Below, piece after piece: positions 1,545 to 40,396 of a DNA stretch of 64,000 nucleotides (positions within the stretch are counted from its first letter, which is position 1; each line of letters starts with the position of its first letter). The DNA is from Phycisphaerales bacterium JB043 (lineage in GTDB: Bacteria; Planctomycetota; Phycisphaerae; Phycisphaerales; UBA1924). The translations under genes and the position numbers were made by a program. Below the pieces are notes generated by a model. That model was not told the origin of the DNA and ran no database searches. It was given only the letters and a program-made list of their open reading frames with translations. Location: positions 1 to 64,000 of the forward strand of contig JBICIA010000003.1 of NCBI GenBank assembly GCA_043101425.1, written 5' to 3'.

Positions 1545-2501
1545 TCATCCCACGAGGCCTCGTACTCGCTCGAGGGTGGCGAGATACTCCTCATTGGAAT
1601 GATCGGTCATCTCGCACGCTCGTTGGGCCGCCTTGAGCGCCCACTTCAGATGCGCGGGCTCGCCCGCCAGCCCATCAAGAATTGTCACAGCGAAAGTGTT
1701 CAGTGCGTCCGGATCAACAGAAAAGCCGGCGTCGAACAGCTCGCGCGCGTACTCGTCCGCCAGCCGAACTCCATCCTGGTGCTCGCTGCTGGCAAGCGAC
1801 ACGTAGAAGCCGCCACCCAACGCGTCATAGTGACCTGGGTAGGCAGCAACACATTGGATGAAAGCCTCGCCCGCGCGTTGGTGCTCACCCTTGGCGCTGG
1901 CCTTGAACGCCGTATCGAGAAACGCATTCGCACGGCGCAGCTTACGGTGCCTATCCGCCTCTGCCTCGAGGTCGAAGGTGCCATCCAGGATCTCTGCGAG
2001 CGCCTTCTCCATGCCCATATTCGTGAAGCCGATCCACGCGAGGCGACCCTCGCGATCGATAATGGCCGAGGCCGGGAGCCCGAGGCCGTGGAGCTCGGTG
2101 ATGTAGGCCTGCATTGCAGAGTCACTGATGTCCTCCGCGATCGCGTACTCGACGTCGGGCAGTGAGTCGTTCGTTGCGCGATCGTGCAGGAAAGCTTCTA
2201 CACTCGGCGCTGAATCTCTGGGCCAAACATGGACACCAATGATGACGAGGCCGTCATCCCTGTGTTTCGAGGCGAGTTCGTTGTTGCTCGGAATGAGCGC
2301 AAGGCATGGAAGGCACCAGGTCGACCAGAACTCGAGTAGGTACACGTTACCGGGCTCGAAAGTCTCAATCGGTTCCCCTCGATGCCAGACGACGTCCCCG
2401 AGTGGGGGAGCGGGCGAGCCGACGCCGTAATCGCTCGAGGACGTGACGTCGGAGCCAAGGCTGATTGCCGAGATCGCGACCAACTGGGTGATTGCATTCA
2501 T
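1545..2501 (-). CDS. TlpA/ResA-like thiol-disulfide oxidoreductase with C-terminal helical extension
   Basis: WCLPC active-site motif (LLEFWSTWCLPCLALIP). N-terminal signal-like segment MNAITQLVAISAISLG. Start chosen at the MNAITQ methionine. Confidence 0.8.
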   Translation of the reverse strand: MNAITQLVAISAISLGSDVTSSSDYGVGSPAPPLGDVVWHRGEPIETFEPGNVYLLEFWSTWCLPCLALIPSNNELASKHRDDGLVIIGVHVWPRDSAPSVEAFLHDRATNDSLPDVEYAIAEDISDSAMQAYITELHGLGLPASAIIDREGRLAWIGFTNMGMEKALAEILDGTFDLEAEADRHRKLRRANAFLDTAFKASAKGEHQRAGEAFIQCVAAYPGHYDALGGGFYVSLASSEHQDGVRLADEYARELFDAGFSVDPDALNTFAVTILDGLAGEPAHLKWALKAAQRACEMTDHSNEEYLATLERVRGLVG

Positions 2502-2710
2502 AATCAGGCTTGCTCCGTTCGATGCGCTGACAGGTATTCTGCACACGAAAAAGGCGCAGAAATTCTCCAGTATTTGAATGATGGGGGCTCACGGATCTAT
2601 TCCATAGGTTTCGAGTAATTGGCTCTCAGGCCGCGCTCGAGCGGACCCGGGAAGAGACCTCGGGTTCGTGGCCGCTGGCAACAGCCTCGCGCTCCACCTG
2701 GCAGCATGCA

Positions 2711-3439
2711 CTAGTGGTCGGGTCTGCGTGTGATCTCGTCACGAATATCTCGAAGTAATGCTCGCTGCCGGGCAGTCCATACATTCCGCCGGGCTGTGCC
2801 TTCTTCGTCTCCCAATCCGGTGCTGCGTGAACTCCGAACGCGGCTCATGACGAGCTCGCAGATTTCTTCTGGGTTTTCGATGCCTTGCATGATGGCCTTG
2901 TTTCCGGCAGCGTGAGCATTCATTCCTTCATGATTCGTCGCGCCAGCAGTCTCAACAACAATAGTGGAGATTTTAAATAATTGTTGTATGGGACCGCGTT
3001 CTATATATACATCCTGCACATTCTCGAATGTAATAGTGTGCTCCAGAATCTCCCAGATCCCTCTTCTCAGATGCAGACTTCGTTCGGTCATCACGTACCA
3101 CATCGTGTCGTACTTGAGATGGACAGCGACATACACGACGATGTCAGGTAAGACCGCCACGGCGATCGCGGGGGCGGCAAGAAACCACGCCAGTGTCTGA
3201 TTCTGGGTGTAGAGAATTATCCAACCGGCGAGAATCAGAACATCGCTGACGATTGCTGCGATCCAGAAATAGGCTTTCAGGTACGACAAATAACGATGTG
3301 ACGGATGGAATGTGCGGATCAATGCCCCAGGAGTGGAGGGAAGAGTGGGGGGACTGCTGGGGATCGCGAAACATCTGGAGAGGGTTGCCCACACACCCCT
3401 GTACACCCACTCGGTCGAGTGTTTCATGGGATTGGTCAC
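2711..3439 (-). CDS. Membrane protein with bacterial PH (bPH_2) domain, YdbT-like
   Basis: Two TM helices followed by YVMTERSLHLRRGIWEILEHTITFENVQDVYIERGPIQQLFKISTIVVETAG, typical of bPH_2/DUF304. 4-bp overlap with the upstream ydbS-like gene. Confidence 0.65.
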   Translation of the reverse strand: MTNPMKHSTEWVYRGVWATLSRCFAIPSSPPTLPSTPGALIRTFHPSHRYLSYLKAYFWIAAIVSDVLILAGWIILYTQNQTLAWFLAAPAIAVAVLPDIVVYVAVHLKYDTMWYVMTERSLHLRRGIWEILEHTITFENVQDVYIERGPIQQLFKISTIVVETAGATNHEGMNAHAAGNKAIMQGIENPEEICELVMSRVRSSRSTGLGDEEGTARRNVWTARQRALLRDIRDEITRRPDH

Positions 3440-3978
3440 GACGGACTATCTCCCGTGGAACGTCTCGTGCGAAGCTCATCCCGGATTTCAAGCAAGAGGC
3501 TTGTTATCTCGTTGTGTTCTTCTTCTTGATCAGGCCCTGCCTCTTCCTGGTTTCGTGCCCCTCGCATCCGCTCGTAAAGAAAATCGCGCAGCCCTTCCGG
3601 ATCGCTCATGCCCTCGATTCTCATCGTGGCGCCACTGGCTCCCGAGGCTGTCTGGATAGGCACTTTTGCCAACCCCAACCAACGCTCGAGAAGGTTCCTG
3701 GTCATATGGATGTCCTGGAGTCGCCTGTAGGAAAGACGGACTTCTTTGTGAAAGAAGTACCCCCATGACATGGAAACACCGGTGTCGTCGAATCGGTACC
3801 GCATCGTTTTGAAACGGATAAGGAGAGGGATATACACAAATGGGAATGCGACAGGAATCAAGAGCGACAGTATGAGGTAGTAACGATGCAGCCTTGGAAC
3901 GGGCCTGCTGATAGCTCTGGCGTCGAATACCGCTGGCGTTTCCGTATTATCGAGTGTGTCGGATTCGTATGGCACCAC
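3436..3978 (-). CDS. Membrane protein with bPH_2 domain, YdbS-like
   Basis: TM pair then RYRFDDTGVSMSWGYFFHKEVRLSYRRLQDIHMTRNLLERWLGLAKVPIQTASG. Pairs with the following gene as in ydbS-ydbT operons. Confidence 0.65.
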   Translation of the reverse strand: MVPYESDTLDNTETPAVFDARAISRPVPRLHRYYLILSLLIPVAFPFVYIPLLIRFKTMRYRFDDTGVSMSWGYFFHKEVRLSYRRLQDIHMTRNLLERWLGLAKVPIQTASGASGATMRIEGMSDPEGLRDFLYERMRGARNQEEAGPDQEEEHNEITSLLLEIRDELRTRRSTGDSPS

Positions 3979-4071
3979 AGGTCACTCAGCCTTGCATACG
4001 TCAGAAGCAGTAGCGGGCACTGTCTCTTCTGCTTTCCTCAGAGAGACTGTAACGCACGGAAACATGTAATA

Positions 4072-15896: not shown

Positions 15897-16286
15897 TCAG
15901 CTGGCGGGTGTGGGATCTCCGCAGTTGCGCTCCACCGGCACCAGGCAGAGAAACCGGAGGGTTGTGTTGTTCGTGGATCTGAACTGGTGCTCCTCGTCGG
16001 CGGGCACGTAGAGGCAGTCGCCTGGCTTGATGGGATGCTCCAGGGCGTGGAGCAGGAGCGTGCCCTCGCCGTCGAGGACGACGACCTCGTGCTCGTAATC
16101 GTGCGAGTGGCGTGGGGTGTGCCCGCCCGGCTCGACGCAGATCTGTCGCATCGCGAAGTTCGGGGCGCCGTCCTGGCGTCCGATCATGATGGACATCGAG
16201 ACGCCCTCTGCGCCCTCCATGTCGGCGCGTGAGCAGCGAGTGGAGTCCACGTTGCGAATAAGGGCTTGCTGTGAGGTTTGGCTCAT
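15897..16286 (-). CDS. Cupin-domain protein
   Basis: Cupin_2 motifs GGHTPRHSHDYEHEVVVLDGEG and PGDCLYVPADEEHQFRS. Confidence 0.75.
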   Translation of the reverse strand: MSQTSQQALIRNVDSTRCSRADMEGAEGVSMSIMIGRQDGAPNFAMRQICVEPGGHTPRHSHDYEHEVVVLDGEGTLLLHALEHPIKPGDCLYVPADEEHQFRSTNNTTLRFLCLVPVERNCGDPTPAS

Positions 16287-16319
16287 GCCCCGATTCTACA
16301 CCAGGTGTAGGATGGAGCC

Positions 16320-16994
16320 ATGCAGAAAGCTGAGAAAGAGGAGCGGGCGCAGCTTGTCATCGAAAGGGCGGTGTTGGGGCCGTTCGAGACGAATTGCTAC
16401 CTGGTGCGCGTGGGTGCGGGGAGCGACGCTCGGTCATGGTTCGTGGACACGGGGTTCGATCCGGGCGCGCTGATCGCGTTGGCGGAAGAGGCCGGCGTGG
16501 TTCCCGAGGCGGTGGTGTTGACGCACGCGCACGCGGATCACATCGGCGGGCTGGAGCGGGTGCGCGCGGCGTACCCGGAGATCCCGATCTGGATCCACGA
16601 GGCGGAGCGGACCTGGCTGACCGATCCTGACTTGAACCTGAGCAGCGGCTTCGGGGCGCCGCTGGTGATGCCGGAGCCAACGAGGCTGCTGCGTGGAGGT
16701 GAGACGCTGGAGCTTGGTGGGGTGCGGTTCGATGTGCTACACACGCCTGGGCACTCGCCCGGCGGGATCACGCTGCACGCGCCGGATCACGGCGTGGCGC
16801 TGGTGGGCGACACGCTGTTCGAGGGCTCGATCGGGCGGTTCGATTTTCCGACCAGCGACGAGGGCGCGCTGTTCGCGACGATCCGCGAGGTGCTCTACGC
16901 GCTTCCGGATGAGACGAGGGTGCTGCCCGGGCACATGGGCGAGACGACTATAGGACGAGAGAAGCGGACGAACCCCTTTGTGAGAGGTGTCTGA
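16320..16994 (+). CDS. MBL-fold metallo-hydrolase (glyoxalase II-like)
   Basis: VLTHAHADHIGG motif, downstream HTPGHSPG and conserved D/H residues. Confidence 0.85.
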   Translation: MQKAEKEERAQLVIERAVLGPFETNCYLVRVGAGSDARSWFVDTGFDPGALIALAEEAGVVPEAVVLTHAHADHIGGLERVRAAYPEIPIWIHEAERTWLTDPDLNLSSGFGAPLVMPEPTRLLRGGETLELGGVRFDVLHTPGHSPGGITLHAPDHGVALVGDTLFEGSIGRFDFPTSDEGALFATIREVLYALPDETRVLPGHMGETTIGREKRTNPFVRGV

Positions 16995-17022: not shown

Positions 17023-17051
17023 TTGACTGGATTTGTAGCATATGCTACATT
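17023..17051 (+). promoter_or_regulatory. Putative promoter (TTGACT, 17-nt spacer, TACATT) overlapped by 16-bp palindrome TGTAGCATATGCTACA (candidate metalloregulator operator)
   Basis: Sequence gcTTGACTggatttgTAGCATATGCTACATTtcc sits 28 nt upstream of the SBP gene start. The perfect palindrome covers the spacer and -10. Confidence 0.4.
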
Positions 17052-17078
17052 TCCATGAACTCGAAGGGAGCTTTCATC

Positions 17079-18041
17079 ATGCGACTATCTCATAGTGTTC
17101 TTGTGCTGCTTCTGTCTCTGGCCTGCGCGTTGGGCGCACGCGCGCAGGAGCGTCTGTCGATCGTGTGCACGATCAGCCAGGTTGGCGACGCGGTCGCGCA
17201 GATCGGCGGCGATCGTGCGGATGTCGTGACGCTGATGGGTCAGGGTGTGGATCCGCACCTGTACAAGCCGACGCGCTCCGACATGGTGGCGATGCGCCGC
17301 GCGGACATCGTGTTCGCCAACGGGCTGCTGCTGGAGGGCAAGATGACCGACGCGCTGCTGCGCCTGCGCGAGGCGGGCAAGCCGGTGGTGTTCGTGGCGG
17401 AGTCGGTCGACGCTGAGCATCTGCTGCACCCGGAGTATTTCGAGGGCGCGTCGGACCCGCACGTGTGGATGGATCCGGGGCTGTGGGCGGAGTGTGTCGA
17501 GGCCATCGCCTCGGCGCTCGCAGAGCAGGATCCGGGGCACGCTTCGGAGTACGAGGCGAATGCTAGGGCGTACATCGAGAGGGTCCGCGAGCTGGACGCG
17601 TACGCGGAGCGTGTGATGTCGACGGTTGCGGACGACATGCGTGTGCTGATCACGGCGCATGACGCTTTCAATTACTTCGGGCGTCGGTTCGGTCTGGAGG
17701 TGATGGGCATACAGGGGATCTCGACGGAGTCGGAGGCGGGGGTTCGCGAGATCGAGCAGCTCGTGGACGTGCTCGTGGAGCGGAACATTCCTGCGGTGTT
17801 CATGGAGTCGACGGTGTCGGAGCGGAACGTGCGGGCGTTGATCGCCGGGGCGCGTGCGCGCGGGCACAGCGTGTCGCTGGGTGCGAGCCTGTTCTCCGAC
17901 GCGATGGGCGCGCCGGGGACGTACGAGGGCACGTACATCGGGATGCTGGATCACAACGTCACGTCGATCGTGCGCGCGCTGGGTGGTGAGGCGCCGTCGG
18001 GGGGGATGCACGGGCGTCTGGCGATGGACGGGGGTGATTGA
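17079..18041 (+). CDS. Metal (Mn/Zn/Fe) ABC transporter substrate-binding protein, TroA/ZnuA/YtgA family
   Basis: Signal peptide [23 protein letters not shown]. Motifs [11 protein letters not shown] and [16 protein letters not shown] 9 nt upstream of ATG 17079. Confidence 0.85.
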
Positions 18042-18868
18042 TGGGCACGTTCCCCGCGCACAGGGCGCGCGTGCCGGACTCGCTGGACGTGCTGCCCGAG
18101 CACTCGGCGACGAGTCCGCTGTCGGTGCACGACATGACCGTGGCCTACAACCGGCGCCCGGTGTTGTGGGACGTTGATTACGACGCGCCGAACGCGTCGC
18201 TGATCGCGATCGTGGGTCCGAACGGCGCGGGCAAGTCGACGTTCCTGAAGGCGTCGCTGGGGCTGCTGGCGCTGGCGTCCGGTCGCGTGGAGGTGTTCGG
18301 CAAGCCGGTGCGCGCGCAGCGGTCGAGGATCGGCTACGTGCCGCAGCGTGAGAGCGTGGACTGGGATTTCCCCGTCAGCGCGCTGGATGTTGTTGCGATG
18401 GGTCGGTATCGGGCTATCGGGTGGTGCCGTCGTGTGTCGCGCCCGCATCGCGAGGCGGCGCTGGAGTGTCTGGAGCGTGTGGGGATGCGCGAGTACGCGT
18501 CGCGCCAGATCAGCCAGCTCTCGGGCGGGCAGCAGCAGCGTGTGTTCCTGGCGCGGGCGCTGGCGCAGGACGCGGAGCTGTATTTCATGGACGAGCCGTT
18601 CGCCGGCGTCGACGCGGCGACGGAGCGAGCGATCGTGGAGGTGTTGCGTGAGTTGCGGGGCCAGGGCAAGACGGTGATCTGCGTGCATCACGATCTGCAG
18701 ACGGTGGCGGAGTACTTCCAGCACGTGCTGCTGCTGAACACGCGCGTGGTGGCGTCGGGTCCGGTGGAGACGACGTTCACGAAGGAGAACCTGCACAGGA
18801 CGTACGGCGGGCGCCTGACGCTGCTGGACGAGGCGGCGCACGCGCTGGCGCGGAGCGGGTCGATGTGA
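18038..18868 (+). CDS. Metal ABC transporter ATP-binding protein (TroB/ZnuC/YtgB-like)
   Basis: Walker [10 protein letters not shown]. Signature [15 protein letters not shown]. Walker [13 protein letters not shown]. Start overlaps the upstream stop. Confidence 0.9.
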
Positions 18869-20241
18869 TGATGGGTGTGCTCGCCCAGACCAGCGCGACG
18901 TGGACGGAGGTCCTCGAGATCCTGACGTTCCGCTCGGGTTGGAACGCGGGCGTGGTGCTGATCGGTACGACGATGCTGGGTATCAGCGCGGGCCTGATCG
19001 GCACGTTCTCGCTGCTGCGGAATCGGGCGCTGATGGGCGACGCGCTGAGCCACGCCACGCTTCCGGGCGTGTGCGTGATGTTCATGGTGCTTGTGGCGCT
19101 GGGGCACTCTGGGCGTTCCGTTGGGCTGCTGCTGCTGGGGGCGGCGGCGTCGGGCATCGTGGGGGTGCTGACGGTGCAGGCGATCACGAGATTCAGCCGG
19201 GTGCGCGAGGACGCGGCGATCGGGATCGTGCTGAGCGTGTTCTTTGGTGTGGGGGTCGTGCTGCTGTCGCGCATCCAGTCGATGCAGGTGGGCACGCAGG
19301 GCGGGCTGAGTCACTTCATTCTTGGGCAGACGGCGGGGATGAGCTCGCGTGACGCGGCGATCATGGGCGTGGTGGCGGTGCTGTCGATGGCCAGCTCGCT
19401 GCTGCTGCTCAAGGAGTTCCGGGTCATTTGCTTCGATCGCGTCTTTGCGCAGGCGCAGGGATGGCCCGTGCAGATGCTCGACCTGCTGCTGATGGGGCTG
19501 GTGGTCGTGGTGACGGTGGTGGGCATCCAGGCGGTGGGGATGCTGCTCATCGTTGCGTTGCTGATCATCCCGCCTGCCGCGGCGCGGTTCTGGACGGATC
19601 GGCTGGTCGTGATGGTGGTTCTGAGCGGTGTGATCGGTGGCGTGAGCGGGTACCTGGGAGTGGTGGCGTCGAGCGTGTGGTCGGACATGCCGGCGGGAGC
19701 GGTGATCGTGCTCGTCTCGGGCGCGATCTTTCTCGTGAGCTTCGTGCTGGCGCCGCGTCGCGGGGTGATCGCCAACGTGGTCGCCCATCTTCGTCTTCGG
19801 GTTCGCATCGCGTGCGACCACGTGCTGCGATTGATGCTCGAGTCCACGGGTGTCGAGCGGGATGCGAGTAAGGTCACCGATCGGCGGGTGCATGTGTCGC
19901 AGATCGAGCGGGCGCGCGTGTGGTCGGCGCTCACACTCCGGCTGACGCTCTGGCTGCTGCGTCTGAGAGGCCTGCTGCGACGCGAGGGCGCCTATCTGGC
20001 GTTGACTCGCGCGGGTGCGGTCGACGCGGAGCGTGTGACGAGGAACCACAGGCTGTGGGAGCGCTTCCTGGTGACGCACGCGGATCTTGCGGTCTCGCAT
20101 GTTGATCGCGCGGCTGACATGGTCGAGCACGTGCTCTCGCCTGAGATGGTGGCGCGACTCGAGCGGGAGGTGTCGCTGGATGGGGCGATGCCTGTGAGCG
20201 TGCACGAGATCTCGCACGAGCCCTCGGAGGGTGGTGCGTAA
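18868..20241 (+). CDS. Metal ABC transporter permease fused to a C-terminal DtxR/MntR-like repressor domain (YtgC-YtgR-like)
   Basis: Residues 1-~300 are a TroC/ZnuB-type 8-TM permease. The C-terminal ~150 aa resemble a DtxR HTH plus metal-binding/dimerisation domain (ALTRAGAVDAERVTRNHRLWERFLVTHADLAVSHVDRAADMVEHVLSPEMVARLE; compare DtxR [41 protein letters not shown]). Confidence 0.8.
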   Translation: MMGVLAQTSATWTEVLEILTFRSGWNAGVVLIGTTMLGISAGLIGTFSLLRNRALMGDALSHATLPGVCVMFMVLVALGHSGRSVGLLLLGAAASGIVGVLTVQAITRFSRVREDAAIGIVLSVFFGVGVVLLSRIQSMQVGTQGGLSHFILGQTAGMSSRDAAIMGVVAVLSMASSLLLLKEFRVICFDRVFAQAQGWPVQMLDLLLMGLVVVVTVVGIQAVGMLLIVALLIIPPAAARFWTDRLVVMVVLSGVIGGVSGYLGVVASSVWSDMPAGAVIVLVSGAIFLVSFVLAPRRGVIANVVAHLRLRVRIACDHVLRLMLESTGVERDASKVTDRRVHVSQIERARVWSALTLRLTLWLLRLRGLLRREGAYLALTRAGAVDAERVTRNHRLWERFLVTHADLAVSHVDRAADMVEHVLSPEMVARLEREVSLDGAMPVSVHEISHEPSEGGA

Positions 20242-21617
20242 TGATCACGATGGAAGACTTCCTCCAGATCGACTTGCCGGCGCTGCTGAGCGCGATGTTC
20301 GCGTGCGTGGCGTGCGGTGTGTTGGGGAATCTGCTGGTGCTGCGTCGCCAGAGCCTGATGGGCGACGCCGTGGCGCACGTGGTGCTGCCGGGCATCGTGG
20401 TGGCATTCCTGCTGTCGGGCTCGCGCTCGCCCTGGGTGATGGTGCTGGGTGCGACGATCTCCTCGCTGGTGGCGGTCGTGCTGATCGACACGATCCGTCG
20501 ATTCGGGCGTCTGGAGAGCGGCGCGTCGATGGGCGTGGTGTTCTCGATCCTCTTTGCGTTGGGCGTGGTGCTGCTGGAGCAGGCGGCGCTGGAGAACGTG
20601 GATCTCGACGCCGACTGCGTGCTGTACGGTCAGCTCGAGGACATCATGTGGCTGACGCCGACGTCGTTGGGGTCGCTGCTCACTGGTGAGGCGTGGAGCG
20701 ATGCGCCGCGCGAGATGGTGACGCTCGGGGTGCTGACGCTTGTGTCGCTGGCGTTTGTGGTCGTATTCTTCAAAGAGCTTGCCATCACGATGTTCGATGG
20801 CGCGCTGGCGACCACGCAGGGGATCCATGCGGGCCTGGTGCGCACGGTCTCGATGGTGCTGATCGCGATCGCGGCTGTGACCTCCTTCGAGGCGGTGGGT
20901 TCGATCCTGGTGATCGCGATGTTCATCTGCCCGGCCGCGACGGCGCGGATGATGACGGACCGCCTCCGCACGCAGCTCGTGCTCTCGGTGCTGATCGCGG
21001 GGTGGACTGGTCTAGCAGGCTACGTGCTCGCGGCGTTCGGGCCGATGGTGGCGCACTCGTGGGGGCTGATCGAGTGGAACCACTCGCTGCTGGCTTCCGG
21101 GATGATCGCGACGCTTGGTGGTGTGCAGGTGGCGCTGGCGATCGTGCTGGCACCGAGGCATGGCGTGGTGTCGCGCTGGCTGCGCACGATGGGGCTTGCC
21201 GTGCAGGTGGCGCGCGAGGACCTGCTGGCGTTGCTGTATCGCGCCGAGGAGTCGGGGAGCGGGAGCGTCGAGGCGGATGCCGCGTTTGGTGCGGTGCGCG
21301 CTGGAGTTGGCTCGAAGCTCGCCACACGCCTGGCGCTGCGCCAGACGCGTCGTCGTGGTCTGGTGCGTTCGGATGGAGGGCGTCTGGAGCTGAGCGAGGA
21401 CGGGCGCGTCGTGGCGCGCGGGCTTGTGCGCACGCATCGCCAGTGGGAGAGCTATCTGGTCAGCGAGTTGGGGTTGCGACCGGACCACGTGCACCGACCG
21501 GCGATGGATCTGGAGCACGTCACCGACGAGCGCATGCACGAGGAGCTCGACCGGCGCGCCGGGGACGTGGATCCGCACGGGAAACCGATTCCCCGCACCG
21601 GAGAGTCAGCGGGATAG
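20241..21617 (+). CDS. Second metal ABC transporter permease, also fused to a C-terminal DtxR-like domain
   Basis: TroD/YtgD-type permease followed by GLVRSDGGRLELSEDGRVVARGLVRTHRQWESYLVSELGLRPDHVHRPAMDLEHVTDERMHEEL. ATG overlaps the upstream stop (TAATG). Confidence 0.8.
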   Translation: MITMEDFLQIDLPALLSAMFACVACGVLGNLLVLRRQSLMGDAVAHVVLPGIVVAFLLSGSRSPWVMVLGATISSLVAVVLIDTIRRFGRLESGASMGVVFSILFALGVVLLEQAALENVDLDADCVLYGQLEDIMWLTPTSLGSLLTGEAWSDAPREMVTLGVLTLVSLAFVVVFFKELAITMFDGALATTQGIHAGLVRTVSMVLIAIAAVTSFEAVGSILVIAMFICPAATARMMTDRLRTQLVLSVLIAGWTGLAGYVLAAFGPMVAHSWGLIEWNHSLLASGMIATLGGVQVALAIVLAPRHGVVSRWLRTMGLAVQVAREDLLALLYRAEESGSGSVEADAAFGAVRAGVGSKLATRLALRQTRRRGLVRSDGGRLELSEDGRVVARGLVRTHRQWESYLVSELGLRPDHVHRPAMDLEHVTDERMHEELDRRAGDVDPHGKPIPRTGESAG

Positions 21618-22046
21618 ATTTCGCATGGCGCGACGCATCGCGCGGATGGTCTCGTCAGAGGCGTGGTGTTCGATTCCTTCGGCGTCGATCTCGGCCTGGG
21701 CTCGCGTCACGCCGATGGCGCGGAGGAACTCGAGGACGGTCTCGTGGCGCTGGCGGCATTTTTTTGCGAGTCTGGCGCCGGCGGTTGTGAGCTGGATTGG
21801 CTGGTAGGGGGTGCAGACGAGCAGGCCCTCGTCATCGAGCCGTCTCACGATGCGCGAGACCGTGACGTGTGAGACGCCCATCATGGAGGCCAGATCGCGG
21901 ACGCGCGCCTCGCCGCGCTCATCGATGAGTTGTGCGACGGCCTCGACGTAGTCCTCTCCGGTCTCGTCGCGGTGCGCCTTGCGCGTGGTGTGGAATCGTG
22001 CCGCCTGCGGATTGGAGTTCTGTTTCGATTTCGATGCGCTCGCCAT
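21606..22046 (-). CDS. Stand-alone DtxR/MntR-family metalloregulator (HTH plus dimerisation domain, ~147 aa)
   Basis: ARVRDLASMMGVSHVTVSRIVRRLDDEGLLVCTPYQPIQLTTAGARLAKKCRQRHETVLEFLRAIGV. The longer annotated ORF upstream of Met at 22046 is R/P-rich and discounted. Confidence 0.8.
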   Translation of the reverse strand: MASASKSKQNSNPQAARFHTTRKAHRDETGEDYVEAVAQLIDERGEARVRDLASMMGVSHVTVSRIVRRLDDEGLLVCTPYQPIQLTTAGARLAKKCRQRHETVLEFLRAIGVTRAQAEIDAEGIEHHASDETIRAMRRAMRNLSR

Positions 22047-37797: not shown

Positions 37798-38247
37798 CTA
37801 GTGCCCTTTGCAGTGAGCCTCGACCTCGATCTCGATCATGAACTCGGGCAGGGCGAGGCCCTTGACCTCGATCCACTTACCGGTCGGGAAGCGCGTGCCG
37901 TAGATTTCTGACCTATAGCTGGACGCCTGGAGCATCTGCGCCATGTCGGTGGTGAAGATGCTCTCGGAGACGACGTGGTCGAACGTGCAGCCGTAGTAGC
38001 TCAGGCTCTCCTCGATGTCCTGGTAGCAGTTGCGCATCTGCTGTGCGAGATCGCCCACCGCGGTAGGGTTGCCCTCGTCATCCATGCTGACGGCACCCGA
38101 GATCTTGATGGTGTCGCCTATGCGCACGGCCTGTGTGTATCCATAGGCGTCCTCGACCGCGGGGCGCAGCTTGAAGACCTCGGGGGTGTGCGTCGAGGCG
38201 CAGGCGGTCAGGAGAAGGGTGAGAGTGATAAGGCTGATGGTGCGCAT
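37798..38247 (-). CDS. RidA/YjgF-family protein with lipoprotein signal
   Basis: Lipobox LLLTAC. RidA core YTQAVRIGDTIKISG...EVKGLALPEFMIEIEVEA. Confidence 0.8.
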   Translation of the reverse strand: MRTISLITLTLLLTACASTHTPEVFKLRPAVEDAYGYTQAVRIGDTIKISGAVSMDDEGNPTAVGDLAQQMRNCYQDIEESLSYYGCTFDHVVSESIFTTDMAQMLQASSYRSEIYGTRFPTGKWIEVKGLALPEFMIEIEVEAHCKGH

Positions 38248-38330
38248 GGGGGGCTCCGGATGTGTGTGTGAGGGGATTGTAGTGAATTATCATGTGTTTA
38301 CCGATTGACTGGAGTGACAATACAAACTAG

Positions 38331-39065
38331 CTAATGACTCAAATACGTGCGAATCTCGTTTACAAATATTGTTTCGCTAGAATCTAGCCAACCAAAATGC
38401 TCCATAAAAAATTGAATAGCTTTAAGAGAATTTTGTTCGATGGTGCCTCCGAGTGCGTCACCAGTACTGGCAAATTCATATTTAATGCTTTCACAGGCGG
38501 TCTCAAAATAATCATGCCATAGACGATTCTTTGGCGCCATCAATGCCGTACGCTGAATTTGACGGAGTTCTATCGATACCTTCATCGTTAAGTGTGGATC
38601 CAATTTAATTGCGAGACGAGAGGAGAATAAGTACCAAAATATTATTTGTCTTAGAATTTGTTCAATATCTAAAAATTGCGGAGAGTCTGCCGCCTCAAAT
38701 CGCTCTCTTCCGAAGACAATGCAGTCTTCCGCGCGGCTTATTAGTTCCTCTTGCCAGCCCTCATTGGAGATTTCGATGGGTGTACGCATGTACACAAATT
38801 GACCGGACATATGGAGCCTGCAATAGCTGTCTGCAGTGTATGGGTCATATGCTGGCGAGACCCATCCTTCACCAACATCAAATTGGGTTCTCGCTCTAGG
38901 TAATTCTGGAAATTCCCATCTCGCGTAGTGTATTTGGCAGTCCTGGAGAAGCTGCCGCGCATCTCGGTTGCCGCCAATGAGATCGTCTGCTTTCGTAGTA
39001 GGGTGTAACCTCATTAGCCAATGTGGTCCCTCCTTGATTAGCTCTGCTCGCTCAGGAAGACTCAT
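38331..39065 (-). CDS. Island gene 3: hypothetical protein (244 aa) with no recognisable domain
   Basis: ATG overlaps the stop of the upstream AlbA_2-like gene (ATGA). Low GC like its neighbours. Sequence MSLPERAELIKEGPHWLMRLHP...W/Y/F-rich. Confidence 0.6.
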   Translation of the reverse strand: MSLPERAELIKEGPHWLMRLHPTTKADDLIGGNRDARQLLQDCQIHYARWEFPELPRARTQFDVGEGWVSPAYDPYTADSYCRLHMSGQFVYMRTPIEISNEGWQEELISRAEDCIVFGRERFEAADSPQFLDIEQILRQIIFWYLFSSRLAIKLDPHLTMKVSIELRQIQRTALMAPKNRLWHDYFETACESIKYEFASTGDALGGTIEQNSLKAIQFFMEHFGWLDSSETIFVNEIRTYLSH

Positions 39066-39742
39066 TTCAGGAACTCCTCAATCTCACGATCATACTCTTC
39101 CCCGTCTGGGGGGATTGCTTGCTCATTAAGAAGGCCCACTCGAGTGGCGGTACTGATGAACTGGCGGGTCCGTTTTTCTGCAGCCAAGTCGAGAATCTCA
39201 CGTAGTTCATGAGAAGTTTGTACTTTCTCAGTCCGAGGCCGCCCTCGAGGCCTGAAGTACATGGTGCCATTTTGCAATTCTTGTTCGAACGAGCGTTTGC
39301 ATACGGTTGGAATCTCACGAAATTCTTGGGTATGAATAACAATCAACGTGTTGCCATCGAGTTCAATTGCGACAACGGATACATCTAAGGGTGGATCGGC
39401 AAATTTATTAATTTGGTCGATCACAACATCTGTGTCATAAGTAGCGATAACGTTGTCGTCTACACCAGTTATTGTTACTTGATCATCACGTTCAGATATA
39501 CCTATTACTACAATACCCCCGTCGCGAAGATTTGACATTGCTAAGCAAGTGCGTGCTACTCGTGCTGACAGTGTTGACCAATCTTGGCTCTCTTTAAACT
39601 CAATTGATTGTGTTTCCTCTAGTCGTCCGACAGCGAATCGAGTGCGCTCGACAAGTTCTTGGTGCGACTCAGCGGTTACGATCGGCGGCCTAGCCATCGA
39701 AAAGATCTTAGCGTGCTTGCGAGCAAGCCCCAACCAGTCCAC
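39062..39742 (-). CDS. Island gene 2: AlbA_2/Schlafen-like putative nucleic-acid-binding domain protein
   Basis: LEETQSIEFKESQDWSTLSARVARTCLAMSNLRDGGIVVIGISERDDQVTITGVDD fits the AlbA_2 (PF04326) pattern E-x-EFK...AfaN..GG.iviGv.d. GTG start at 39742; ATG alternative at 39697. Confidence 0.6.
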   Translation of the reverse strand: MDWLGLARKHAKIFSMARPPIVTAESHQELVERTRFAVGRLEETQSIEFKESQDWSTLSARVARTCLAMSNLRDGGIVVIGISERDDQVTITGVDDNVIATYDTDVVIDQINKFADPPLDVSVVAIELDGNTLIVIHTQEFREIPTVCKRSFEQELQNGTMYFRPRGRPRTEKVQTSHELREILDLAAEKRTRQFISTATRVGLLNEQAIPPDGEEYDREIEEFLK

Positions 39743-39757
39743 TCACTAACGGCTAGT

Positions 39758-40396
39758 TCAAGATTGCGAGGATGATTGGTAAGCCTCAATTTCATCCGCC
39801 CATGCATAGCCTTCGTAGGTCACGTCAAAAATCTCGCCTTTGTAGCCCACTGCTGACACCAATCCATGGTCAAGCAACTGCTCTAGCCCTGCAGCGTATC
39901 TACGATATTCACGGGGGCCTATGAGTCGTTCTTCAATACTAACCTTCCCAGCTTGTATGGTGCCCCCTCCAAAAGTAGTGAGCTTTGAGATAATAGGATG
40001 GGTTTGCCTGCATGCGTTTACTAGTAACTCTGCCGCCGCGCTAGATAGATTCAGAACTAGATCAGTGACCGTGGTTTCGGCTGCCACAAATTGCTCTTGT
40101 ACAACTACTGGAGTTACGCTAGGTAACGTACCGTTTTCGACAAGATCGATTACATGATCTCGGCATTGTTTAAGTTCATTTTCGGTGAATCTCCGAGTGA
40201 ACGGTACATTTGCATGTACGTCAATGTGACAGCTTACGCAGATTGCGATTAGATTGTCTGGCTCATCTAGCCCTCCCTCTGAAACGGGTTTTATGTGATG
40301 CACCTGCAAGTGCAAGGGCTTAAACCGACGACACAAACAACAATGACGCCCACACATCGACAGAAGATGGTCAACATGCTTTTGTGGAATAGTCAT
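39758..40396 (-). CDS. Island gene 1: HNH endonuclease domain protein with ~150 aa uncharacterised C-terminal domain
   Basis: CGRHCCLCRRFKPLHLQVHHIKPVSEGGLDEPDNLIAICVSCHIDVH (CxxC...HH...N...CxxCH). RBS AAGGAA 11 nt upstream of the ATG. Confidence 0.75.
   Translation of the reverse strand: MTIPQKHVDHLLSMCGRHCCLCRRFKPLHLQVHHIKPVSEGGLDEPDNLIAICVSCHIDVHANVPFTRRFTENELKQCRDHVIDLVENGTLPSVTPVVVQEQFVAAETTVTDLVLNLSSAAAELLVNACRQTHPIISKLTTFGGGTIQAGKVSIEERLIGPREYRRYAAGLEQLLDHGLVSAVGYKGEIFDVTYEGYAWADEIEAYQSSSQS

Follow-up and report, generated by a model that had tools for sequence, protein, structure and literature searches.

To our knowledge, fusions between a permease of an ATP-binding cassette (ABC) transporter and a DtxR-like module are known from one experimental system, the chlamydial YtgC-YtgR, and Chlamydia is hard to manipulate genetically. 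In Chlamydia trachomatis, YtgC-YtgR (CT069) is encoded in the ytgABCD operon as an ABC-3 permease with a C-terminal DtxR-like module that lacks an SH3 domain. Cleavage and repression were shown for YtgR (PMC5599777, PMC6504234). Single permease-DtxR fusions occur in 11 phyla according to Thompson et al. (2012), as summarized in the review PMC5599777. Here we describe a predicted metal-importer operon in a window of 64,000 nucleotides from Phycisphaerales bacterium JB043 (assembly GCA_043101425.1, contig JBICIA010000003.1, positions 1 to 64,000), in which two adjacent permeases, permease 1 and permease 2, both continue into such a module. The fused permease of Chlamydia comes first among the permeases of its operon, like permease 1, the modules of the window likewise have no SH3 domain, and both organisms belong to the Planctomycetes-Verrucomicrobia-Chlamydiae (PVC) group. 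The locus differs from ytg in that the second permease is fused too, that a gene for a free MntR adjoins it, and that the DNA-reading part of the modules is not conserved. Compared with YtgR, the modules of the window are known from sequences and structural models.

Further systems are relevant to this locus. The order of its genes, binding protein, ATPase and two permeases, is that of Treponema troABCD-troR, and TroA is the protein most similar to the binding protein of the window. The gene of the DtxR-like TroR lies directly after troD in the account given in PMC2628430. This is where permease 2 carries its module here, which is a likeness of position. TroR has been demonstrated to be a repressor and is a protein of its own, whereas its equivalent in the window is part of the permease polypeptide. 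In E. coli ZnuBC, which belongs to the same ABC-3 permease family, a cytoplasmic metal-binding domain is built into ZnuC. This zinc-sensing domain dimerises on metal and locks the importer, which provides post-translational feedback beside a transcription factor. The sensor of ZnuC consists of a small Cys/His motif in the ATPase, while here each permease carries a whole DtxR-fold module as the candidate sensor, a functional analogy and not homology. Inspection of the ABC ATPase sequence in the window revealed no Cys-rich ZnuC-type sensing tail. In MetNI and ModBC, import is halted when the substrate that they transport binds to their cytoplasmic regulatory domain (trans-inhibition). The concept is shared with the sensors proposed below, but the regulatory domains of MetNI and ModBC are located on the ATPase subunits and have unrelated folds.

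Both permease tails are complete DtxR/MntR-like modules

The initial annotation of this DNA had proposed a DtxR-like module at the C-terminus of each permease, to be checked with the families PF01325 and PF02742. PF02742 was matched in both tails above its Pfam cutoff of 27 bits, at residues 381-434 of permease 1 (48-51 bits) and residues 386-452 of permease 2 (62-65 bits). PF01325 had no Pfam match in either tail, even at E<=1, although the winged helix-turn-helix (wHTH) fold was seen by sequence profiles and structural models. Alignments of the tails (A2, permease 1 from residue 296; A3, permease 2 from residue 303) were used as profiles against PDB sequences. The A3 profile aligned to residues 5-132 of M. 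tuberculosis MntR (5zr4) with an E-value of 4.5e-25, and further matches were DR2539, IdeR, DtxR, SloR, and ScaR. The A2 profile aligned to residues 18-130 of 5zr4 (E 5.7e-15) and residues 9-132 of DtxR (E 7e-13). Both profiles cover the whole two-domain core of the solved regulators.

The AlphaFold models of the modules had a predicted local distance difference test (pLDDT) score of 85 for permease 1 and 82 for permease 2, and both showed the canonical order of helices α1, α2 and α3, a two-stranded wing, and helices α4, α5, and α6. Foldseek grouped both models with DtxR, IdeR, and MntR at a probability of 1.0, and DR2539 was also among the matches of the permease 2 module. The permease 1 model superposed on IdeR/DtxR with a root-mean-square deviation (rmsd) of ~3 Å across ~122 residues. 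The two tails are homologous yet distinct, with an hhalign probability of 99.8% and 29% identity. These results show that both permease tails have the complete fold of a two-domain DtxR/MntR-like module, and they confirm the DtxR-like regions named in the annotation. The segment that exits the membrane carries an AP.RG motif followed by an Arg-rich stretch, and both the motif and the basic helix are conserved among the homologues. In both modules, the linker and α1 were modelled as a single continuous helix of 27-29 residues (H6-32 and H7-35) with a pLDDT above 90.

The tails were put on DtxR numbering via the A2 and A3 alignments and compared with the DtxR metal ligands, which we take to be M10, H79, E83, H98, C102, E105, and H106. 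M10 corresponds to H319 in permease 1 and to D327, with E326 next to it, in permease 2; H79 corresponds to H395 and H399, and E83 to E399 and E403, respectively. H98 is represented by D414 (plus H412) in permease 1 and by H418 (plus D415 and H416) in permease 2, and C102 by D418 and M422, the latter being M, E or T in the family. The counterparts of E105 are E421 and E425, and those of H106 are H422 and H426. All of the permease 1 residues named here are candidate ligands, while in permease 2 the candidates are E326, D327, H399, E403, D415, H416, H418, E425, H426, and D444. Both motifs that had been quoted as the DtxR signature in the initial annotation were found in the translations of the two permeases. 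In addition, the end of the permease 2 tail, DPHGKPIP (DPHG.PIP in the family), resembles the PFGNPIP of DtxR. The ligand columns were kept in 57-60 of 60 homologues of permease 1 and, except for position 422, in 56-60 of 60 homologues of permease 2. Both modules are under strong selection to bind metal, because the ligand columns are near-invariant in 60 homologues per family. That the modules of the window are decaying relics was considered and rejected, since their ligands are near-invariant.

A double fusion had been considered unusual in the initial annotation, which does not hold in this part of the tree. PF00950 and PF02742 were present together in all 120 best homologues of permease 1 and likewise in all 120 of permease 2. 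The loci compared were the best 80 of at least 574 relatives in a scan with the permease 2 alignment, with one genome per GTDB species. With hidden Markov models (HMMs) built from the two families, both adjacent permeases were fused in 72/80 loci, which is a biased frequency since the loci were picked by similarity to a fused permease 2. Two further loci were ended by contig edges, with the permease 1 tail still visible. Permease 1 alone was fused in L001, L002, L046, and L056, a Hyphomicrobium metagenome-assembled genome (MAG) and Skermanella being among them, and permease 2 alone was fused in L049 only. Fusion of only the first permease, a trait of the YtgC-YtgR type, was found neither in the window nor in these 72 related loci.

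The hosts were mostly Phycisphaerae, the others being Pirellulaceae, Verrucomicrobiota, a Kiritimatiellae MAG, and a Bdellovibrionales MAG. In the cultured Roseimaritima sediminicola JC651 (Pirellulaceae), both fusions were checked with Pfam. The permease 2 tail profile was also compared with 1.84 billion cluster representatives, which gave 172 clusters at E<=1e-30; the domain was always C-terminal in these clusters, and the full-length proteins had 425-476 aa. No published description of the double fusion or of planctomycete fusions was found in a literature search of limited coverage. The double fusion is common in Planctomycetota yet apparently undescribed.

In Skermanella stibiiresistens SB22 (L056) and an Azospirillaceae MAG (L065), the permease 1 tails are short and degenerate (112-122 aa), and their ligand motifs are lost, with RNRRLWERF...IDPIDRVLP in place of RNHRLWE...ADxVEHVL. 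These tails have the look of remnants from an earlier fusion in Alphaproteobacteria.

DNA-reading surface, operator and free regulator

The variability of the fused modules was compared with that of the free MntR, using for all three the sequences of the window and of one set of 25 genomes. The mean column entropy of the permease 1 module, the permease 2 module and the free MntR was, respectively, 2.59, 1.87, and 1.14 bits in α2, 2.75, 2.37, and 0.99 bits in the recognition helix α3, and 2.47, 2.23, and 1.06 bits in the wing. The corresponding values were 1.38, 1.33, and 1.30 bits in α4 and 0.73, 1.08, and 0.90 bits in α5. The α3 of the free MntR reads GV(S/T)HVTVxRxVxRL in nearly all 26 genomes, whereas the fused modules retain only the hydrophobic periodicity. 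Neither PF01325 nor any other helix-turn-helix (HTH) family was matched at E<=0.1 in the 21 permease 1 tails and 22 permease 2 tails scanned, while PF02742 was matched in all of them. Every free regulator tested matched PF01325, with 39-53 bits.

Moreover, the segment from α1 to α4 was shortened in 13/73 permease 1 modules, to 68-81 residues compared with a median of 93 (12-25 fewer), which is consistent with the loss of one HTH helix. The metal motifs were intact in the short-variant sequences inspected, with L056 and L065 as the exceptions. Selection seems to keep metal binding, the α4-α5 core and the linker but no particular DNA-reading surface, because α3 is variable, HTH families were matched in 0/43 tails and a subset of the wHTHs is shortened, while the ligands are near-invariant. 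Of the label 'repressor domains' in the initial annotation, the DtxR-like part stands; the repressor part is doubtful in view of the missing PF01325 signature, the variable α3, the deletions in a subset, and an operator that co-varies with the free regulator.

This operator, a palindrome, is placed in the spacer of a sigma-70-like promoter, overlapping the -10 hexamer (Table 1). Its core, to which the initial annotation had already pointed, was confirmed as TGTAGCATATGCTACA. The annotation had also named a separate MntR-like gene beside permease 2, which was borne out by the curated NCBIfam model NF008273 and both Pfam families. The window protein passes this model as an E. coli-type MntR, with TGTAGC-ATAT-GCTACA as its presumed operator. 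The sequence AAACATAGCAAAGGCTATGTTT, which was read from the genome upstream of E. coli mntH and which is reported to be the E. coli MntR box (Patzer and Hantke, 2001), has the same TAGC-N4-GCTA architecture and half-site spacing as the window box, and 5/7 positions of the half-sites match.

The box was searched for in the related loci as TGTAGC-N4-GCTACA with <=2 mismatches of 12, <=250 nt upstream of the binding-protein gene. It was found in 48/65 loci in which the binding-protein gene could be located, while by our calculation ~0.01 boxes per locus are expected by chance. An adjacent gene of the MntR type was accompanied by the box in 24/27 loci, and an adjacent gene of the DtxR+FeoA type in 0/6 loci. 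In these six loci (L010, L038, L043, L052, L054, and L055), a three-domain DtxR-type regulator is encoded ~3-4 kb upstream of the permeases in place of MntR; the regulators of L010, L043, and L054, the three scanned, matched PF01325, PF02742, and FeoA (FeoA/SH3). A different palindrome, GTTTGAC-N4-6-CAAAC, was found in L043, L052, and L054, and a similar one in L003, which has no adjacent regulator. In all six DtxR+FeoA-type loci, the pair of fused modules is still there. The operator goes with the free regulator and not with the fusions, because the box tracks the regulator type while the fused modules stay the same. We infer with good support that the free MntR controls transcription of the operon via the conserved TGTAGC-N4-GCTACA box between the -35 and -10 elements. 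In the reading that we tentatively prefer, the fused modules would not be primarily sequence-specific repressors.

Overlapping tandem boxes, TGTAGC-N4-GCTACATGTAGC, in which a second half-site abuts the first box, were observed in L004, L012, L014, L022, and L027. These loci also have shortened permease 1 modules. In L037 and L049, the binding-protein gene is directly preceded on the same strand by the MntR gene, which is probably the first gene of the operon.

Operon layout and neighbourhood

The initial annotation had placed the locus in a Chlamydia-related lineage, which is correct at the level of the PVC group only. In a database search, permease 1 and permease 2 each matched a protein from the MAG Phycisphaerales bacterium JB043 with 100% identity, and the window has a GC content of ~65%. 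Scans of the window with Rfam and for tRNAs yielded nothing of use for its placement. Phycisphaerales belong to Planctomycetota within the PVC group, and kinship with Chlamydia exists only at this very deep level.

As shown in Table 1, the operon is tightly packed on the + strand, with neighbouring genes sharing 1-4 nt; the start of permease 2 has 1 nt in common with the stop of permease 1. The gene of the free MntR is convergent with permease 2 and overlaps it by 12 nt. The likely start of the binding protein is the ATG at 17079, which is preceded by GGGAG, and its N-terminus looks like a signal peptide. Its closest solved relative is T. pallidum TroA (1toa, E 2e-69), and the contexts of the His/His/His/Asp motif are kept in the alignment. 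For permease 1, the database copy starts at the ATG at 18868 and has 457 aa with 100% identity. The set of a Tro/Znu/Mnt-type importer is complete in the operon (PF01297, PF00005, and two PF00950 in Pfam). The operon encodes an ABC importer for divalent metal, of the Tro type (TroA-like), in a planctomycete of the Phycisphaerales. The imported metal is most likely Mn2+, because the ligand sets are all-N/O, the binding protein is TroA-like and the partner is an MntR; Zn2+ or Fe2+ would also be possible.

Table 1. Features of the importer locus, in positions of the window
Feature	Position	Strand	Remarks
Sigma-70-like promoter	17023..17051	+	TTGACT, 17-nt spacer, TACATT, extended TG; 1 site vs 0.1 expected in shuffles
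Operator palindrome	17028..17055	.	TGGATTTGTAGCAT/ATGCTACATTTCCA; perfect core TGTAGCATATGCTACA at 17034..17049
TroA-type periplasmic metal-binding protein	17079..18041	+	PF01297 E 3e-77; mechanical open reading frame from 17004
ABC ATPase subunit	18038..18868	+	PF00005 E 4e-26; start overlaps stop of binding-protein gene
Permease 1 (TroC/YtgC position), ABC-3 + DtxR-like module	18865..20241	+	458 aa; PF00950 residues 31-295, E 2e-56
Permease 1 C-terminal module	19750..20238	+	Residues 296-458; APRRG motif, basic linker helix running into α1, wHTH, α4-α6
Permease 2 (TroD/YtgD position), ABC-3 + second DtxR-like module	20241..21617	+	458 aa; PF00950 E 1e-43
Permease 2 C-terminal module	21147..21614	+	Residues 303-458; PF02742, profile match and model
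Free-standing MntR	21606..22046	-	146 aa; NF008273 164.1 bits (cutoff 153); PF01325 42 bits, PF02742 46 bits

Directly upstream of the operon, at 15897..16994, are genes for two metal-dependent enzymes, a cupin-domain protein (- strand, PF07883) and a metallo-beta-lactamase-fold hydrolase (+ strand, PF00753), the latter of which stops 29 nt ahead of the -35 element of the importer promoter. Elsewhere in the window, a low-GC island lies at 38331..40396 on the - strand between a RidA/L-PSP gene and groEL, with a GC content of 0.485 in 38001-40000 compared with ~0.65 elsewhere. It contains genes for a 244-aa protein without a Pfam match, a Schlafen/AlbA_2 protein (PF04326, E 7e-15), and an HNH endonuclease (PF01844, E 5e-9), and resembles a small island gained by horizontal transfer, possibly one of defence genes. 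A second GC dip is located at 2001..4000 (0.554 compared with ~0.65 in the remainder).

Possible roles of the tethered modules

The reading we tentatively prefer, at somewhat below an even chance, is that MntR governs transcription of the operon, while the tethered modules would sense cytoplasmic metal and gate the transporter. A metal ligand is located on α1 (H319 in permease 1 and E326/D327 in permease 2), and α1, the linker and the exit from the last transmembrane helix would be rigidly continuous. Metal would clamp α1 onto the α4/α5 ligands in domain 2, as in DtxR activation. Each transporter would carry one module of each kind, and metal binding would probably also pair their dimerisation domains. 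The change would be relayed to the permeases, and import would be slowed when the cell is metal-replete, which would place a fast post-translational feedback on top of the slower repression by MntR. The more specific version, in which the DtxR-like modules of the permease heterodimer pair as a metal-sensing heterodimer and gate import via the rigid linker-α1 helices, with transcription left to the separate MntR, is possible but more doubtful.

Several observations weigh against tethered sensing. The only studied relative, the chlamydial YtgC-YtgR, is cleaved, and its freed domain represses (PMC5599777, PMC6504234). The wHTHs of the window modules are full-length, confidently modelled and arginine-rich, so that they could still bind DNA, and a variable recognition helix could reflect lineage-specific targets instead of none. 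The entropy values depend on alignments of divergent segments. In the permease 2 model, domain 2 is poorly packed, with an rmsd of ~9 Å in Foldseek; because of this packing, the permease 2 module was judged by its topology and sequence-profile alignment. The modules are placed in the cytoplasm on the grounds of the basic linker and of what DtxR domains do, and a Kyte-Doolittle count, which is a crude scan, gave 8-11 peaks for the transmembrane segments.

The main rival reading, a doubling of the YtgR mechanism, is less likely but deserves serious attention. Both modules would be freed by proteolysis, and their homo- or heterodimers would act alongside MntR as metal-dependent repressors of the operon or of other genes. 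The architecture is that of YtgC-YtgR, which was shown to be cleaved and to repress in dependence on its operator (PMC5599777, PMC6504234), both window modules have a complete wHTH fold with an Arg-rich α3-wing region, and the ligands of metal activation are intact. However, α3, α2 and the wing vary much more than those of the MntR from the same genomes although the operator of the operon is conserved, the HTH family signature is missing from all 43 members scanned, the wHTH is shortened in part of the permease 1 family, and the operator type follows the free regulator. Furthermore, the linker is short, helical and conserved instead of a disordered, protease-accessible tether, and there is no conserved internal start codon. 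Tethered sensing and a YtgR-like cleavage are not mutually exclusive. Cleavage of the window permeases and the three-layer circuit suggested in the initial annotation are speculative. Still less probable is binding to DNA without release, as by the membrane-anchored transcription factors ToxR or CadC. Full-length YtgC also repressed in E. coli, and the review raises this possibility (PMC5599777), but the variable α3 and the tracking of the operator argue here too, and a linker of ~14 residues would keep the wHTH close up to both the membrane and the dimer of the ATPase; we regard this reading as very improbable.

The modules might also serve as metal acceptors or buffers that take the imported ion at the cytoplasmic exit of the permeases and pass it on or store it, with no regulation involved. 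The conserved ligand sets, the tethering near the membrane and the relaxed constraint on the DNA-reading part would all agree with such a role, which is nevertheless rather improbable, as a whole two-domain fold with a conserved dimerisation helix and a rigid linker exceeds the needs of a binding site. No case of a DtxR-family protein working as a chaperone is known to us. Finally, the initial annotation had named an assembly or frameshift artefact, by which separate small repressor genes were joined to the permease genes, as a possible refutation. This has a negligible probability and was ruled out: the same continuous reading frames recur across 72/80 loci of independent genomes and hundreds of clusters from metagenomes, and conservation extends to the AP.RG linker motif and the basic helix.

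Fusion of a DtxR-like module to both permeases, alongside a conventional MntR, is routine in free-living Planctomycetota and their relatives, at least one of which is cultured. This arrangement splits two jobs that are confounded in Chlamydia, the reading of DNA and the sensing of metal at the transporter, and the comparisons made here suggest that the fused modules kept only the latter. It provides a testable hypothesis of post-translational feedback in Mn/Zn/Fe import and a tractable system in which to ask why regulators fuse to permeases. If the more specific version with a gating heterodimer is true, a transporter would have taken over the fold of a transcription factor as an allosteric regulatory domain. 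The permease-DtxR fusions of many phyla may then be mainly devices of trans-inhibition, and the cleaved chlamydial YtgR may be a derived special case.

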